64,000 bases of DNA from a bacterium (GCA_030616605.1 JAUWWY010000002.1:30404-94403); one strand, 5' to 3'. Positions 4,912 to 16,637 are shown, counted from the stretch's first letter. Made by a program: numbers and translations. The notes: generated by a model from the sequence alone, not told the origin.

Positions 4912-4923
4912 AAATTAAGAATA

Positions 4924-4941
4924 TCACCGTCCCGACCGGTG
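4924..4941 (-). repeat. REP-like hairpin repeat, copy E (inverted orientation): TCACCGTCCCGACCGGTG
   Basis: Reverse complement of the 18-mer CACCGGTCGGGACGGTGA found four more times within 1.3 kb. It can fold as a CACCG/CGGTG stem. Confidence 0.8.
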
Positions 4942-5685
4942 TTTTTCCTTTTCTTCTGCCTCCTCTAGAGCGAGCTCGGCGAATTCCCTAATTTCTCCCT
5001 TGTACCTTATCCAATTTTCAACAAACTTTTTGCAACCTTGTGGACCATTCATTACCTTTGACAAAAATTCTCTCTCGGTGACCGATGGAAAATTCTTTTT
5101 GCCAATATAATCAGGATAACTTGACCATTTATAATTTTCCAAAAACTTAATGACTTTCTCTGGGTTTTGAATTCCTATTTCTTTCCATTTTGGCTCAATA
5201 AGAGAAATGGGGTTGGCGTGGATATAAACAAATACAACTTTTAATTGGTTATCGTCTTCGATGTGAACCGAAACGAATCTGTTTTGAAAAACATGGCCTT
5301 TGCGATTGTATTTTCTATTGAAATATCCCCCATAACCTCCACCTATCTTTTGCATAAAGTTGGAAATTCCCTCGTCTTTTAGCTGTTTCAACAATAAATG
5401 GATATGATTGGGCATAAGAGAAAAAGTTAAAACTTCAACAATTTTATCCCGTTCATCATTGACACCGGTCGGGACGGTGATGGTTTCTTTGAGGGCTTTT
5501 TTCATTTGGGCACGAACTTTCCTCCGTTCCCTAATCTTTACTAATCTGGCCGTATTAAACTCATAAATGGAGAAAATTCCACGATAATAGTCATCAATAT
5601 CTTTGAAAATTAAATTATCATCAATTGCTCTTAGAGTAACGTGATAAATTTCGCTGTTTGCAAATTGTTGTTCTCTATAAGGCAT
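4924..5685 (-). CDS. REP-associated tyrosine transposase (RAYT; IS200-like Y1/HUH transposase fold)
   Basis: HUH motif MPNHIHLLL and downstream VYIHANP tyrosine motif. The ATG at 5685 is preferred over the GTG at 5697 used in the track. The last five codons plus stop (HRSGR*) are supplied by a REP copy. Confidence 0.75.
   Translation of the reverse strand: MPYREQQFANSEIYHVTLRAIDDNLIFKDIDDYYRGIFSIYEFNTARLVKIRERRKVRAQMKKALKETITVPTGVNDERDKIVEVLTFSLMPNHIHLLLKQLKDEGISNFMQKIGGGYGGYFNRKYNRKGHVFQNRFVSVHIEDDNQLKVVFVYIHANPISLIEPKWKEIGIQNPEKVIKFLENYKWSSYPDYIGKKNFPSVTEREFLSKVMNGPQGCKKFVENWIRYKGEIREFAELALEEAEEKEKHRSGR
5463..5480 (+). repeat. REP-like hairpin repeat, copy A (inside the RAYT coding sequence, in frame as TVPTG)
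   Basis: Exact CACCGGTCGGGACGGTGA. Confidence 0.8.
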
Positions 5686-5694
5686 AAATAGTGT

Positions 5695-5712
5695 CACCGG
5701 TCGGGACGGTGA
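5695..5712 (+). repeat. REP-like hairpin repeat, copy B (between the RAYT start and the giant-gene stop)
   Basis: Exact CACCGGTCGGGACGGTGA. Shares the extended context AATAGTGTCACCGGTCGGGACGGTGATGG with copy C. Confidence 0.8.
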
Positions 5713-8700: not shown

Positions 8701-11481
8701 TGTAATTGTGTTTGCCAGGGGGGTGCCAACTCCAAGAATATACATATTGTCTAAATAAGCTATGTTGTCCGCATCAGCATCAACTATTGTTATGATTATT
8801 TGGTCAATAGCGTCTTTATCCGCATCTGCAACCCCAGATATCTCCCAAGTTTCCGTTTGGTAGGTATTGGATGTCGCAACATTTGCCGTATGCTCGGTAA
8901 TTGTCCCTCCAGAATCGTGAATACTTATTTTTATATTACTTCCTGTTCTTAAAGCATAGATGTCATATTTAATCGTGCTCATACCAGACAAATCTATCGT
9001 CGGGCTAACTGTCCTCGTCAAAGTCTCATTTAAACTACTGGTCATTTGTGCTATTCCTTTCAGAGAGTAAGTACCTTGTTGGACAATGGTAGATTCAGAA
9101 TAACATTGCAATGCACTTACACCATGGGAAGGATTTTCGTCTTCAGTGCCATTACCACTATTATAAATAGCTTCAATATCAGCCGTAGAAAGCTTAAAGT
9201 TATAAAGGCGAACATCATCTATATCTCCATCAAATCTTTCGGAACCTCCCCCAAGCTGACCTATAAATCCTTGAGTCCAGTCAAAGCTATTTAAAGCGGT
9301 TACTGAATCTGTGCCATCTACACCTGCATTTATGTAAAGCTTCATATCGGTTCCATCATAAGTAACAACCACATGAGACCATCCAGCAGTAGAAATATCT
9401 GCTGCACTTATAGCGTGGATATATCCGCCACCAAGTTTGTTTGTATAACAATGAAGTTTACTATTTTCAATTCTGAAAAACGTAGTGTTAGAAAACTCAG
9501 GCATCATTACAATCTCGTGTACCCCTGTAATTGTATCTGGATAAATCCAAGCACAAATGCTAAATTTTGTTGCCTGCATATCAAGTTCAGTTAAATTTAC
9601 ATAATCATTGGTTCCATCAAAATCAAACGCACCACCTATTTTACCTGTTGAATGCAAAAGAGAAGTATTTTTTGATGCTACCCCAGTAGATGCTGCCATG
9701 GCATCAGCCACATTGGTATTAGCTGCGTCATCATTTAATTTATAATGATGTAATGGATCAGCAACTTCTCCAGCAGCAGCACTACTCACATAAGCTGCTT
9801 GAGCCGCTGCATCGTTAGCATATTCCATATAATCAAGTTCAGTTGGCGCTGCAGGTGCTGTGAGTGAAATAGTTGTGTCATTGTCAGCATCCTGAAGGGC
9901 AGTCGTTATAATAGAGCCATTTACTTCTAACTTTGCCCCAGGACTATTTGTTCCGATTCCCAATCTATTATTAGTATCATCCCAATAAAGATTAGTATTG
10001 TCCTGGGAAATTAGTCCTGATGAAGTAGAGAAGAGGATTGAACCATTGGTTAATCCTGAAAGAGTCAAATCAGTGGTTACTATTAAGTTAGTGGTGGTAG
10101 CTGTGCTTGTAACAGTAAGATTATTAAAAGTTGGAGAATCAGATGTTCTCAGGTTTTGGTTCATTAGATAAACTTCAGTTGCTCCCTGACCAGTATCAAT
10201 TGTTCCTGCTAAAGTAATATTTCCTGAACCCCAGATATCGCCAGCCACGGTTAAAGGATAAGATGGAGTTGTGGTAGCGATACCTAATCTGGTAATAGTG
10301 GTGGTGGCTAAAGTGGAGGTGGCTTGGACAACCTGAGTACCTGAGACAGCAAGATTGCCACTCATTGAAATATCACCAGTGGTACTAAGATTGCCATTTG
10401 AATTAACAGTTAAATAATTGGTTGTGCCACCAACTCTGAAGGTGTTGGTTAAAGTAACAGGGGAGATAAAATTAGCAGTGGCATAAACTCTCAGTTTGTC
10501 TAAAGAATCAGAACCAAGAGTGGCAGAACCACCAACTCCTAAGTTAGTAATTCCAGCCATACCGGAAACCCCCAAAGAAGCTAAGGTCGCTGCTCCTCCT
10601 ATTTGAATTCCCTGGGAGCCAATATATACTGGAGCGGTTGAAACCTGAGTGGAAGGAGGATGAGTTTGAAGTTTACTGGTTAAAATCTGGAGAGTCAGAA
10701 TATCTTTTTCCCATTCCTGGATTTCGGAAATTTGGGATTTGAGCAGAATCAGGGATTTATCATCAATTGTTTCTATTTCTTTGACAATAACTTCTACCTC
10801 TTTTATTATTTCTTTTTGAGACACTCCTTCTTCTTTTAGTTTTTCAAATCTTTCCTGGAGTTCTCTGAATTGTTCTCTGGTAATAAATTTCTCAGCAATT
10901 AATTTTTCTATTTCTTGTTTTAAAACAAGATCTTCCCTTAAAACAACTTTCTCTTTTCCTTTAAAAATGCTAACTACTTTTTGAGGAACCTGTTTTATTT
11001 TCTGAACCAGTATTTGAATTTGTTTTTTAATTGCTCTTGTATTTTGAGTAACATATTGGCTGACCTGGTCTTTAATAGAGGCAGTATTTTTTTTAATATC
11101 AGAAGTAATTTCTTCTACTTGTTTTACGAAGGAACTGACAACTGGTTCAAAATAGGAATAAGCAAAAATAGTTCCAATAAAAGTCAAAACAAAAACCAGT
11201 GCTATTGCCACTACAATAGTGCGTGGCAGCACTGATTGGTAAAAAGGTTTCTCTATTTTTTCTAATTCTTTTTTCTTCTTTCTCTTGGCTGTCTGATTTT
11301 TATACTCTGTCACCCTCTTCAAATATTCATCTATCCATTCTTTGGTAGTCGTCCAGTTTCTACCAATTTTTACTGCCTTTAGTTTTCCTTGCCTGACTCT
11401 TAAATTCAAATACTCCTGAGAATATCCAGAATATTCTGCTGCTTTTCTAAGGGAGATTTGCTCGGACTTTCCTTCCTGCAT
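5731..11481 (-). CDS. Giant (1916 aa) HTH, TM, coiled-coil, LamG, tail-fibre-like protein with a Peptidase_S74-type intramolecular chaperone domain
   Basis: The N-terminus has an excisionase/MerR-like HTH ([34 protein letters not shown]), followed by one TM helix. The LamG/ConA-like region runs from [10 protein letters not shown] to [11 protein letters not shown]. At least 8 G.VGIGT.SP repeats are typical of tail-fibre proteins. [10 protein letters not shown]...LQEWSYK resembles the S74 chaperone domain. Confidence 0.7.
5734..5925 (-). repeat. Coding tandem repeat (36/42-bp units on a 6-bp base period) encoding a (TPEPEP)n tail
   Basis: Repeated GGCGTTGGTTCAGGTTCAGGAGTTGGTTCTGGCTC(TGGCTC)G units. 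Translates on the minus strand as [14 protein letters not shown]... Confidence 0.9.
5931..5948 (+). repeat. REP-like hairpin repeat, copy C (inside the giant gene, in frame as ITVPTGDT)
   Basis: Exact CACCGGTCGGGACGGTGA. Confidence 0.8.
6159..6176 (+). repeat. REP-like hairpin repeat, copy D (inside the giant gene, in frame as ITVPTGDT)
   Basis: Exact CACCGGTCGGGACGGTGA. Confidence 0.8.
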
Positions 11482-13975: not shown

Positions 13976-14516
13976 CGAGGTCTCTTTGGGAAATTGTGGT
14001 TTGGAGATTAAGAGTTTGAGGTGATGCTCCAACTGTTTTCAACTTTAAAGCAAAGGTCACTTGGGGCTGAAGAACATCGTCTTGAGATGCTCCTTTGATT
14101 TCAAAAGACAGTCCCTCTACCTCAAGATTTGATGGGGTCAAAGGCATAAAATCTTTAGATTCGGGAACTGGAGGGGTACCATCAGCTAATTTTGATTTCC
14201 CTACCTTTAATTGCTTAGTCTCTAAAATAAATTCTTGACATTTTCCATTGTAATTCAAGAATCTTATACCATTAGCTATAGTTTCAAAATTATGTTTTTC
14301 AGTAATGCAATTCCCAGTAATGTCTTTTTTCGCCATCCGTAAATCCCGGCTTATATACTCTGTTAGATAGGAAGCGCTGTTTAAAAGATATGCTGAATTT
14401 AAGCTTTCTCTTTGATAATGAAAAGCAGAAGTAAAAAGGCTTAAAAAGGCAATAATTACAATGGAAAAGATAGTTATGCTAATTAGAATTTCAATTAAAG
14501 TGAAACCTTTATTCAT
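13962..14516 (-). CDS. PilW/GspJ-like minor prepilin with an intact leader
   Basis: MNKG|FTLIEILISITIFSIVI prepilin cleavage/methylation motif. Start at the ATG at 14516. Confidence 0.75.
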   Translation of the reverse strand: MNKGFTLIEILISITIFSIVIIAFLSLFTSAFHYQRESLNSAYLLNSASYLTEYISRDLRMAKKDITGNCITEKHNFETIANGIRFLNYNGKCQEFILETKQLKVGKSKLADGTPPVPESKDFMPLTPSNLEVEGLSFEIKGASQDDVLQPQVTFALKLKTVGASPQTLNLQTTISQRDLDVQY

Positions 14517-14521
14517 AAATA

Positions 14522-15064
14522 TTAACGCCAATTATATAAATTTTCTTCAACTTCAAAGGGCGAACCCTTACCTAACCAGTTTATTTCAACTTTGACATTC
14601 AAAATATCAGCCGACACTGAGTCAGGTGTAATTGTAATTTTCCTTTTAAATTTTGTATCTTGACCATTTTGATAATTATAAAATTCGTTAGAATCAATTT
14701 TTAGATAGCGACCCTGAAAAGAAACAAGGGCTAAATCATCATAGTCAATTTCACAACCGCCAGAACAATCAGTTAAACCATCATCCCAATTTACTCTTTC
14801 CAGCCAATTTGAGTCCCGAATATTTCTGACAATTTCAATTCCCTCTCTACTAAGCTGTGAGGCAATAAATTTGTTATTCTGTTCCGCTGTAATAGAAACT
14901 ACTCTGGGAACTATGGCATAGATACCAACAATTCCAATAGTCATTATTGAAACAGCGACCATTATTTCCATTAAGCTAAACCCAGCACCACTTTTATTGG
15001 GGAAAAGTGGTCTCTTGATAAAGTTGGAAATATAAAAGTGGTGCTGGGTAAATCCTTTGTTCAT
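14522..15064 (-). CDS. PilV/GspI-like minor prepilin whose leader carries a 24-codon palindromic insertion
   Basis: Reads MNKGFT-QHHFYISNFIKRPLFPNKSGA-G|FSLMEIMVAVS. Removing nt 14984-15055 gives the canonical MNKGFSLMEIM. Confidence 0.7.
   Translation of the reverse strand: MNKGFTQHHFYISNFIKRPLFPNKSGAGFSLMEIMVAVSIMTIGIVGIYAIVPRVVSITAEQNNKFIASQLSREGIEIVRNIRDSNWLERVNWDDGLTDCSGGCEIDYDDLALVSFQGRYLKIDSNEFYNYQNGQDTKFKRKITITPDSVSADILNVKVEINWLGKGSPFEVEENLYNWR
14981..15048. mobile_element. 68-bp palindromic (MITE-like) relic: 16-bp perfect inverted repeats CCCAGCACCACTTTTA / TAAAAGTGGTGCTGGG separated by 36 bp
   Basis: Arms at 14981-14996 and 15033-15048 are exact reverse complements. They match the termini of the GIY-YIG element at 15575-15857 at 15 of 16 positions. 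Confidence 0.75.
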
Positions 15065-15067
15065 AAT

Positions 15068-15838
15068 TTATTCTATTTCTATTCTCCCGGCCGAATTTAT
15101 TTTTATAATCTTCTCATCTTCTCCTAAAACAAGGATAATTTCAGCTTCTTCCCTCCAATCCTCTCCATTTATAAAAGTGATTGGGTTAGGAGGAGAAAAA
15201 ACAATGTTTAAAGCATTTGAGACCGAGGGTGATATGCTTTGAATTTGAACTCCTTTTTCTAAATTCACCTCTCTTAAAACTTTGTCATTTGCTTGAATAT
15301 AACTTTGGTCTTTATTACAGTCAGCAAAAAGAAGATAAGAAGTTGGTGAAGAAACTACGTGAAAATAAACGCCAAAATTATGAGTTTCTCCGCCAGCACA
15401 ACTTACTTCTCCAGCTCCCATTGCCATCTCCTGGGTTTCTCTTAAATCTTGTGTTAATTGATAAGCTACTCTTTGAAGGGCTAATTTTTTTTCCTCTCCT
15501 GTTTTACCTAAAAATAAAACAGAAGAGAGAATACCAATGATTATTATGGTCACCAAAAGTTCAACTAAAGTGAACCCAGCACCATTTTTAAAGCTATTTC
15601 GTGCACGCCTCTTAAACTCTTTAACGGCGTTGCCATGACCCTTCAACCTTTTCTCTCTTTCTCTGGCGTCTTGTTCTGATTGATATGCCTCATAAGATAC
15701 AAGTCGCCACGGCCTATATCGTCTGGTCGATATTTCTAAACCATTATTATGTTCATGCAACCTTCTACGAAGATCATTTGTAGATCCTATGTATACTTGC
15801 TTATATTTTGTACTTTCTAATAGATATACGTAAAACAT
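15068..15838 (-). CDS. GIY-YIG nuclease domain (aa 1-~80) fused in frame to a FimT/GspH-like minor prepilin (G88|F89TLVELLVTIIIIGIL...)
   Basis: The N-terminus is MFYVYLLESTKYKQVYIGSTNDLRRRLHEHN...YEAY...REKRLK (GIY-YIG). It is followed by NGAG|FTLVELL, the prepilin cleavage motif, and a pseudopilin body. Confidence 0.8.
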   Translation of the reverse strand: MFYVYLLESTKYKQVYIGSTNDLRRRLHEHNNGLEISTRRYRPWRLVSYEAYQSEQDAREREKRLKGHGNAVKEFKRRARNSFKNGAGFTLVELLVTIIIIGILSSVLFLGKTGEEKKLALQRVAYQLTQDLRETQEMAMGAGEVSCAGGETHNFGVYFHVVSSPTSYLLFADCNKDQSYIQANDKVLREVNLEKGVQIQSISPSVSNALNIVFSPPNPITFINGEDWREEAEIILVLGEDEKIIKINSAGRIEIE

Positions 15839-15857
15839 AATTAAAAATGGTGCTGGG
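15575..15857 (-). mobile_element. GIY-YIG gene cassette bounded by perfect 16-bp inverted repeats, inserted in prepilin leader codons
   Basis: CCCAGCACCATTTTTA (15575-15590) and TAAAAATGGTGCTGGG (15842-15857) are exact reverse complements. They are flanked by the near-identical direct repeats GGGTTCAC and GGATTCAC. Confidence 0.75.
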
Positions 15858-15873
15858 TGAATCCTTTATTCAT
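15841..15873 (-). other. Relic prepilin start: 10-codon ORF MNKGFTQHHF* whose ATG overlaps the pilD stop (ATGA)
   Basis: ATGAATAAAGGATTCACCCAGCACCATTTTTAA. It is identical at peptide level to the first 10 residues of the 14522..15064 product. Confidence 0.7.
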
Positions 15874-16637
15874 AATAAATTAAGATACCAATTAATTATT
15901 TCTCTTCCCCAAAATAAAGCAATAAATGTTCCGCTAACCAGAAAAGGACCAAAAGGTACTTTACTTGTTAAGCTTTTTTTAGCAAAAGCCACTAAACCTA
16001 ATCCTATTATAGCACCGATAAAAAATGAAAAAAATAAACCAACTAAAATATTAGGAAAGCCGAGAAAAAGACCGATAAAAAAACCTAATTTGGCATCACC
16101 TAAGCCCATCCATTTACCCCGGGACAAGAACCAAATTAGAAAGAAAAACCCTGAAGCAGCAAGAGCACTTAGAATTGAGGAATAAAAATTAGAAGTTTGA
16201 AAATTGAAAATTATTTGATAAAAAAGAACTATTATGATTGCTGGAAAAATTATTTTATCAAGGATTATATAGTGTTTAAGGTCATAAACGAAAATGACAA
16301 TTAAGAGACAAGAAATGATTGATAAATAAACAGTAAATGGTAAATCGTAAATGGTAAATCGTAAAAAAATTAAGACAAAAATAATTCCTGTGCCTATCTC
16401 AACTAAGGGATATTGCCAGGAAATTGGTTTTTGACAATACCTACACTTTCTCTTTAAGAATATAAAACTTAAAATTGGGATTAAATCAAAAAATCCTAAT
16501 TTGTGATGACAACTTGGACAATAAGAACGATTACTGAGAAAACTCTCTTTCTTTTCCAAACGATAAATCAGACAATTTAAAAAACTGCCAAAACAAATCC
16601 CAAAAATAAAAATAATTATCCCAAAAATTATATTCAT
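15870..16637 (-). CDS. pilD: Prepilin peptidase / N-methyltransferase (A24 family)
   Basis: 255 aa. N-terminal CxxC...CxxC (CPSCHHKL...CRYCQKPI), polytopic, with the conserved GLGDAKL aspartyl motif. Confidence 0.9.
   Translation of the reverse strand: MNIIFGIIIFIFGICFGSFLNCLIYRLEKKESFLSNRSYCPSCHHKLGFFDLIPILSFIFLKRKCRYCQKPISWQYPLVEIGTGIIFVLIFLRFTIYDLPFTVYLSIISCLLIVIFVYDLKHYIILDKIIFPAIIIVLFYQIIFNFQTSNFYSSILSALAASGFFFLIWFLSRGKWMGLGDAKLGFFIGLFLGFPNILVGLFFSFFIGAIIGLGLVAFAKKSLTSKVPFGPFLVSGTFIALFWGREIINWYLNLL

Follow-up and report, generated by a model that had tools for sequence, protein, structure and literature searches.

A probable miniature hairpin transposon in the leader of a Patescibacteria minor prepilin gene

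The 64,000-nt stretch of DNA analyzed here (GCA_030616605.1, JAUWWY010000002.1:30404-94403; hereafter the window) has a GC content of 34.8% and carries, on its minus strand, a type IV pilus/pseudopilus operon. The proteins encoded at this locus have homologues almost solely in metagenome bins of Patescibacteria (candidate phyla radiation, CPR), and the host is an uncultured, ultrasmall bacterium of this group. Our analysis concerns a short in-frame insertion in the PilV/GspI-like minor prepilin gene of the operon (14522..15064, minus strand; 180 aa), whose mature part is intact and matches N_methyl and TIGR02523; in a profile search the N_methyl/IV_pilin_GFxxxE motif was placed at residues 27-49 and was accompanied by a weak PilV match. 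The open reading frame (ORF; 15064..14522) starts with MNKGFTQHHFYISNFIKRPLFPNKSGAG↓FSLMEIMVAVS (the arrow denotes the predicted prepilin peptidase cleavage site), as in the initial annotation, which was made from this stretch alone and had read the N-terminus as MNKGFT, an insert, and then G↓FSLMEIMVAVS. The resulting protein has the features of a prepilin substrate, i.e., Gly at position -1, Phe at +1 and Glu at +5, followed by a hydrophobic alpha1-N segment (...KSGAG↓FSLMEIMVAVSIMTIG). A gene for a cognate prepilin peptidase of the A24 family (ORF 16637..15870, minus strand; Pfam A24_N_bact, E 8.7e-33; Peptidase_A24, E 2.1e-15) lies directly upstream, two genes ahead of the PilV-like gene.

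The leader contains two 18-nt inverted repeats (14980..14997 and 15032..15049; 100% complementary, with 34 nt between them), previously noted as exact over 16 bp and in fact slightly longer. These are the arms of a 68-nt hairpin element (14981..15048, minus strand; QHHFYISNFIKRPLFPNKSGAG), which is flanked by two copies of TTTA: the upstream copy (15049..15052, minus strand) provides a Phe codon and the first base of the next codon, while the downstream copy (14977..14980, minus strand) restores Phe +1 and the Ser codon of the mature pilin. The filled allele reads GGA-TTTA-[CCCAGC...GCTGGG]-TTTA-GC, and the element plus the duplicated TTTA amounts to 72 nt, in frame; under an equally valid placing of the boundaries the element is 70 nt long (ACCC...GGGT) and the duplication 2 nt. 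The start-proximal arm (ATAAAAGTGGTGCTGGGT on the plus strand, ACCCAGCACCACTTTTAT in the mRNA) encodes T-Q-H-H-F-Y, and the distal arm (ATAAAAGTGGTGCTGGGT in the mRNA) encodes (N)K-S-G-A-G and thereby provides the Gly at -1 of a rebuilt peptidase site. As had been proposed, the leader now comprises 28 residues and closes with this rebuilt G↓F. Within the loop lies an incomplete third copy of the arm core (AAAAGTGGT, 15003..15011), which, as read from the sequence, may pair alternatively over 9 bp with the start-proximal arm. The only reading frame across the element is that of the host leader, and the element has no transposase gene of its own.

A natural empty allele of this site was found in metagenome contig L001 (SRR30965930), which is 97.1% identical to the window over 413 nt upstream and 98.1% identical over 359 nt downstream of the site. 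The gap is clean and corresponds exactly to window positions 15052..14981 (72 nt); at the site the contig reads ATGAACAAAGGATTTAGCTTAATGGAA (ATGAACAAAGGATTTAGCTTAATGG), with a lone GGATTTAGC in place of the two duplicated copies. It specifies the leader MNKG↓FSLMEIM, precisely the one that the initial annotation had expected to result from removal of the 72 nt. The absence of these 72 nt from a contig with 97-98% identity indicates that the insertion is recent. Moreover, plain short leaders are present in 100 of the 116 PilV-like orthologues that have a recognizable pilin motif, so the long QHHF...KSGAG leader is not the ancestral form, the outcome that would have overturned the initial annotation.

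We assign a probability of roughly 70% to the reading that the 72 nt arose when a non-autonomous hairpin transposon of 68 nt, resembling a miniature inverted-repeat transposable element (MITE) and belonging to a Patescibacteria-wide family, recently inserted here with a 4-nt target duplication. The element shows four hallmarks of a MITE: (i) terminal inverted repeats, (ii) a duplication recognizable against the empty site, (iii) small size and lack of genes, and (iv) ends shared with a longer, gene-carrying element.

This longer element is a cassette of 283 nt (15575..15857, minus strand), likewise bounded by an inverted repeat and inserted at the same codon of a GspH-like prepilin gene, with a GIY-YIG nuclease ORF in its loop. 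It is flanked by duplicated TTCA (15861..15858 and 15574..15571), and its site also has an empty counterpart, since contig L002 (SRR22580794) lacks window positions 15864..15578 (287 nt) and reads ATGAATAAAGGTTTCACTTTAGTTGAA. The arm sequence CCCAGCACCA[C/T]TTTTA (CCCAGCACCAYTTTTA) occurs four times in the window, where 0.13 copies are expected and none of 100 shuffled sequences reached four, and all four copies belong to the two elements. The arms of the short element differ from those of the cassette by the single base (C versus T) reported before, and this difference is mirrored in both arms of each. The two genes also share the insertion point and the first ten residues (MNKGFTQHHF), an earlier observation that holds with the insert placed after the A of the Thr/Ser codon.

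In the GspH-like gene, the cassette has left the old leader as a mini-ORF of 10 codons (MNKGFTQHHF; 15841..15873, minus strand), whose TAA stop lies 2 nt before the GIY-YIG ATG (15836-15838), an arrangement that suggests translational re-initiation. In an equivalent element on contig L110 this stop is missing, and the old leader, nuclease and pilin form a single ORF. The window's fusion ORF (15068..15838, minus strand; 256 aa) is composed of the nuclease, a low-confidence linker (...SFKNGAG↓FTLVELL), alpha1 and a GspH-like domain. In an AlphaFold2 model of the fusion (mean predicted local distance difference test score, pLDDT, of 83), values below 50 are confined to residues 82-88 (SFKNGAG), the junction between the confidently modeled GIY-YIG domain and the alpha1 helix.

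The GIY-YIG ORF comprises about 80 codons (Pfam GIY-YIG, E 1.3e-16; domain at residues 1-71). One arm abuts its start and the other its end, which places the gene within the hairpin loop. The nuclease is a catalytic domain alone: the fusion contains no other nuclease or DNA-binding domain, the prepilin comes next, and the two-domain architecture of I-TevI-type enzymes is absent (TIGR01453 scored 24 bits, below its cut-off of 56). Searches of the PDB by sequence and by fold gave UPF0213 protein BH0048 (E 7e-5), SLX1 and I-TevI as the best solved relatives of the nuclease and EpsH as a further fold match of the fusion, with no Ssn-labeled structure among the matches. Free-standing relatives retrieved in a word-indexed protein search with the domain only, in which fusions did not appear, are 81-90 aa long, mostly 84 aa. 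When 1.84 billion cluster representatives were searched exhaustively with the nuclease domain, 78 of the best 150 relatives examined, including 37 of the top 50, were N-terminally fused to a prepilin motif. The fusion junction among these 150 is most often KSGAG↓F, and K[S/N]GAG↓FT was found in 37 of the 53 fusions of the first-found set.

At the nucleotide level, GIY-YIG genes were bracketed by arms or whole hairpins in 8 of the 13 loci fetched. The gene-in-loop layout with the same arms recurs in L110 and L243, whereas in L138, L171, L204 and L236 small whole hairpins or single arms flank the nuclease gene (whole hairpins on both sides in L138 and L171). Free-standing relatives of 85-86 aa were also observed outside pilin genes, in an msrA-msrB spacer (L246, 1975-2286) and in a Cloacimonetes metagenome-assembled genome (MAG; L249, 1978-2382), flanked on both sides by unrelated inverted repeats of their own, about 12-24 nt long; the gene-in-hairpin-loop layout is therefore not confined to Patescibacteria or to pilins.

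The two elements of the window belong to a family with the termini CCCAGCACCAYTTTT...AAAARTGGTGCTGGG and loops of 0 to about 300 nt, whose long forms carry the single-domain GIY-YIG nuclease. A plain scan of reference genomes with the 15-mer arm yielded mostly single chance matches in unrelated phyla, and only paired inverted matches were informative. Such pairs were found at about 13 reference loci, mostly in Patescibacteria MAGs (Kerfeldbacteria, Jorgensenbacteria, Paceibacterota, Saccharibacteria and others), with element sizes of 37, 40, 46, 63, about 104 and 299 nt. In metagenomes, the paired-arm scan revealed 40-70-nt forms on at least 120 contigs, comprising at least 105 distinct short elements; many are near-complete palindromes whose perfect stems span 15-32 nt and whose loops can be as short as 0 nt. 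Four contigs (L137, L164, L173 and L191) carry two copies each. Position 11 of the arms covaries: among the matches listed (105 distinct), the pair is C-G in 87, T-A in 15 and discordant in 3, against about 28 discordant pairs that we calculate for independently varying arms. The window contains one element of each subtype, the 68-nt element being C-G and the cassette T-A.

Among the same matches, an exact 4-nt duplication (TTTA, TCAA, TGAA, TATA and others) accompanies 19 of the 100 copies located outside pilin genes, and these non-pilin copies favor A at -1 and T at +1 (56-57%). They occur in any orientation, some of them in stretches without a long ORF. These are the features of a transposable element rather than merely of a conserved regulatory hairpin, and the short forms appear to move as such, given how many short copies have loops unrelated to one another and target duplications of their own.

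Prepilin genes are a recurrent site of insertion. Among the matches listed, 22 of the 126 short copies (1 doubtful, 2 duplicates) immediately precede the G↓F[TS]LxE motif of a pilin; the ORFs of these pilins remain intact, at 138-585 aa, and an upstream Met lies in frame with them. In the pilin frame the right arm (AAA AGT/AAT GGT GCT GGG) reads K-S/N-G-A-G and is followed by the duplicated TTY-A, while the left arm encodes TQHHF, LPSTTF or YPAPLF, as set by the loop length modulo 3. The same codon has been hit by independent insertions in orthologues of the PilV-like gene: the element in L251 shares the arms but not the loop, that in L250 (617-684) has different arms (CCCCGTTAGAAAATTTT...AAAAATTTCTAACGGGG) and is again 68 nt plus TTTA, and L252 carries a tandem pair. 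Enrichment at prepilin sites could reflect target preference, survival of harmless insertions, or both. All five prepilin G↓F sites of the window contain TTYA, and two are occupied; the remaining three genes have empty GGT-TTY-AC targets (Gly codons at 14507, 17137 and 17659, minus strand) and could be future insertion sites.

Several further variants of the prepilin inserts were observed. Like that on L250, the PilV-like orthologues P0145, P0236 and P0238 have palindromic inserts with other arms, with CCC...GGG ends, at the same GFT codon, which suggests that several arm families share this site. The PilV-like orthologue on L252 (619-724) contains two tandem elements (FTPHHF...KSGAG↓FTHAPSFSKSGAG↓FTLIE), whose outermost arms (CCCCGCACC.../...GGTGCGGGG) are better matched to one another than to the arms next to them, suggesting nested insertion or an exchange of arms. 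Three groundwater contigs (L243, L244 and L245; about 2240-2400), all with one and the same 82-aa GIY-YIG gene within a prepilin leader, are otherwise identical but contain either 2 or 3 tandem units of 42 nt ahead of the pilin G↓FTLIE; each unit combines the left arm with half of the right arm and repeats the leader end (AAAGGGTTTA), and its copy number could vary through repeated insertion into the regenerated TTTA or through slippage.

The following course of events may be proposed. The GIY-YIG nuclease, acting in trans, would recognize the paired arms, probably in the form of a DNA hairpin, just as Ssn does with NTS repeats, and its cuts would allow copies to insert at T-N-N-A sites, where insertions with a duplication are indeed seen. 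The TTYA within the Gly-Phe-Thr/Ser codons of prepilin genes is such a target, and insertion there is safe: the duplicated bases bring back the Phe codon and Lys-Ser/Asn-Gly-Ala-Gly comes from the right arm, so that a canonical G↓F...E5 site is rebuilt before an unchanged mature pilin. The 24 additional residues, or in the long form the entire nuclease, would join the cytoplasmic leader and be removed with it by the A24 peptidase; in this way both the pilin and the element would persist, and the insertion is probably harmless. Such cleavage is made more plausible by the cytoplasmic location of leaders, by the fact that long ones are normal in type IVb and Tad pilins (PMC10710030), by the net charge of the extended leader, which stays positive, and, for the fusion, by the low-pLDDT junction in the AlphaFold2 model. 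The upstream G↓F (MNKG↓FTQHH) should not be used, since it lacks Glu +5 and the hydrophobic helix.

A further-reaching idea, which we advance tentatively and regard as possible but rather improbable, is that prepilin leaders are the home niche of these minimal selfish elements, with the host peptidase releasing a leader-borne nuclease. If so, the nuclease would be translated by means of the pilin's expression signals and held at the cytoplasmic face of the membrane, the host protease would perform an intein-like "splicing", and the gene-less hairpins would exploit the same trick. The precursor would be situated beside the pilus/competence machinery, where the nuclease might meet incoming single-stranded DNA, possibly linking the spread of the element to DNA uptake by natural transformation.

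The components of this system have known counterparts, in that in-frame palindromic elements, MITEs and pairs of Ssn nucleases and NTS hairpins have all been described. The Ssn proteins are single-domain GIY-YIG enzymes that cut single-stranded DNA beside the hairpin repeats (NTS/SRM) flanking their own genes, in an arrangement like that of insertion sequences (IS) (Chenal et al., 2025; PMC11893778). Shared with Ssn are the GIY-YIG domain standing alone (about 80-95 aa, below 150 aa here, although fused to a prepilin in the window), the hairpin repeats on both sides of the gene (repeat-gene-repeat), and many gene-less repeat copies scattered in genomes (PMC11893778). The present system differs in its arms, which depart from the SRM consensus, in the location that the gene can take in the loop of one hairpin, and in the target duplications. 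Because of the consensus mismatch we propose, by analogy, that the cassette nuclease and its hairpins may work like Ssn rather than be Ssn.

Rickettsia palindromic elements (RPEs), compared here by lifestyle only, are also short palindromes that survive in ORFs as in-frame peptides compatible with protein function; they are about 100-150 bp long, are scattered over unrelated genes and are kept in the mature protein, whereas the prepilin elements hit one defined site repeatedly and their peptide is expected to leave with the leader (PMC10969869). No GIY-YIG partner of RPEs is described in that review. Bacterial MITEs (Correia, RUP, ERIC) have in common with the 68-nt element the terminal inverted repeats, a duplication, the absence of coding capacity and arms shared with a gene-carrying form; the differences are the partner, here an 80-residue GIY-YIG nuclease instead of a known transposase, and the size, which goes down to about 37 nt. 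As in the systems formed by repetitive extragenic palindromes (REP) or bacterial interspersed mosaic elements (BIME) with REP-associated tyrosine transposases (RAYT), and in IS200/IS605 elements with their Y1 transposases, hairpin DNA is the recognized unit, a small nuclease gene lies between its own hairpins and gene-less hairpins spread, but the enzyme is HUH/Y1 there and GIY-YIG here. IS200/IS605 insertion generates no target duplication, which is present at our elements. Inteins and intron-borne homing endonucleases, considered only as a concept, resemble the cassette in placing a selfish nuclease gene in a conserved site of a host gene, the damage being undone after expression, and differ in that removal here would be performed by the host prepilin peptidase at a rebuilt signal-peptide site and not by self-splicing. 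Literature searches aimed at prepilin leaders and CPR pilins containing palindromic or GIY-YIG elements gave no description of (i) repeated use of the prepilin cleavage codon, (ii) an element end that rebuilds the peptidase site, or (iii) a GIY-YIG clade existing mostly as prepilin leaders.

Several points weigh against the interpretation of the 72 nt as a mobile MITE-like insertion. The 64-kb window shows no more than two elements, and 81 of the 100 non-pilin copies among the matches listed have no exact duplication. Mobilization by the GIY-YIG clade is a step that we infer by analogy, and the SRM consensus HGTCWYN(0-2)YYVSBRHN(0-5)WNVSBRGN(0-2)RNCYNB has no match on either strand of positions 14900-15950 (the sole match to this pattern elsewhere, at 8811, is unrelated). 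An 80-residue nuclease has no obvious strand-transfer activity with which to paste in copies. We know of no precedent for a prepilin peptidase removing a folded leader of about 88 residues. Finally, an 18-bp hairpin 15 nt past the AUG could seriously depress translation, in which case the insertion may not be neutral.

The initial annotation had regarded the short insert as the cassette element after internal deletion of the nuclease gene, or as a product of homing followed by decay. The kinship with the cassette stands, given the shared termini and target and the polymorphic site, whereas an origin by deletion or decay does not follow from the sequences. If a full GIY-YIG element had homed or transposed into the PilV-like gene and then lost its nuclease gene, one could account for arms that agree at 16 of 17 positions, the identical insertion point and the full copy located 500 bp away, and the partial third arm copy in the loop would hint at rearrangement. 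The 38-nt interior, however, retains no similarity to that of the cassette (local score 10; shuffled sequences averaged 9 and reached at most 14), and the loop produced no alignment above shuffled controls either with the cassette interior or with 134 other elements. The arm subtypes also differ, the change having affected both arms together, many short copies at unrelated sites have loops of a different sequence and duplications of their own, and orthologues bear independent short inserts with different loops. The dissimilar interior, the different subtypes and the abundance of short copies make the 68-nt element a MITE-like sibling of the cassette and not a demonstrable deletion relic; we consider the latter unlikely.

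We give somewhat less credence still to homing specific for prepilin genes, in which the GIY-YIG enzyme would cut the sequence GGN-TTY-ACN-YTN-ATH-GAR of empty genes, copying would proceed by paralogous or allelic recombination, and the short forms would be decay products. The site does recur across many pilin families, the conserved flanking coding sequence could supply the homology, and the occupancy of two of the window's five prepilin sites agrees with such a process. Pure homing is nonetheless difficult to reconcile with the copies outside pilin genes, which make up about 80% of the short copies among the matches listed, and with target duplications that vary from site to site (TTCA and TTTA here; TCAA, TGAA and TATA elsewhere). 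Relatives with other arms reside in non-pilin spacers, such as that between msrA and msrB in L246, and the nuclease lacks the DNA-binding domain of I-TevI-type enzymes.

The hairpin might instead be kept by the host, as an extended leader or an mRNA/DNA structure regulating the minor pilin by attenuation or by switching through excision and insertion, an explanation to which we attach very little weight. Folding of the mRNA upheld the strong hairpin previously proposed near the beginning of the coding region: in the filled allele an 18-bp stem forms from nt 16 of the ORF onward (-32.7 kcal/mol, z = -3.6), compared with -1.8 kcal/mol for the empty allele, and the predicted structure could lower translation of the pilin. 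Besides this very stable fold, the copy number of the related 42-nt unit, which varies among otherwise identical contigs, would fit such a role. On the other hand, the insert is missing from the 97-98% identical strain and from most orthologues, no Rfam family was matched beyond noise (E 0.4-1), and a promoter/terminator scan indicated that the hairpin is not terminator-like and has no terminator-like tail. The presence of the same hairpins in non-pilin contexts, some without a long ORF and in any orientation, makes a translational throttle an unlikely reason for the element's existence, and, together with the absence from a near-identical strain, leads us to regard the hairpin as a side effect. 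An ancestral long leader, a chance palindrome or an assembly artefact has nothing in its favor beyond the long leaders of other pilin classes and can practically be dismissed, in view of the short-leadered orthologues, an arm count far above chance and the same structure in many independent assemblies.

If the 72 nt are a MITE-like insertion, mobile DNA can reside in a gene that is probably needed and leave its product unharmed, by inserting at a signal-peptide cleavage site and rebuilding it. The small, possibly Ssn-like GIY-YIG nucleases of Patescibacteria would gain a concrete genomic lifestyle and a defined candidate DNA partner, the CCCAGCACCAYTTTT hairpin, in genes that matter for the epibiotic life of these bacteria, and the filled and empty alleles would serve as markers of recent element activity in natural populations. 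There is also a warning for annotation, as many 200-400-aa "GIY-YIG nuclease family proteins" of Patescibacteria are pilin genes carrying an element, and the same applies to odd long-leader pilins in their genomes.

A second hairpin-associated unit, unrelated to the prepilin elements, lies elsewhere in the window, between a gene for a 1916-aa LamG surface protein and ftsW. It contains an ORF for an IS200-like Y1 transposase (5697..4924, minus strand; PF01797, E 1.9e-11) and spans positions 4923-5711, with a GC-rich 20-nt hairpin repeat (ATCACCGTCCCGACCGGTG) at 5711-5692, internally at 5481-5462 and, inverted, at 4942-4923; it looks like a separate unit of the REP/RAYT or IS200/IS605 type.

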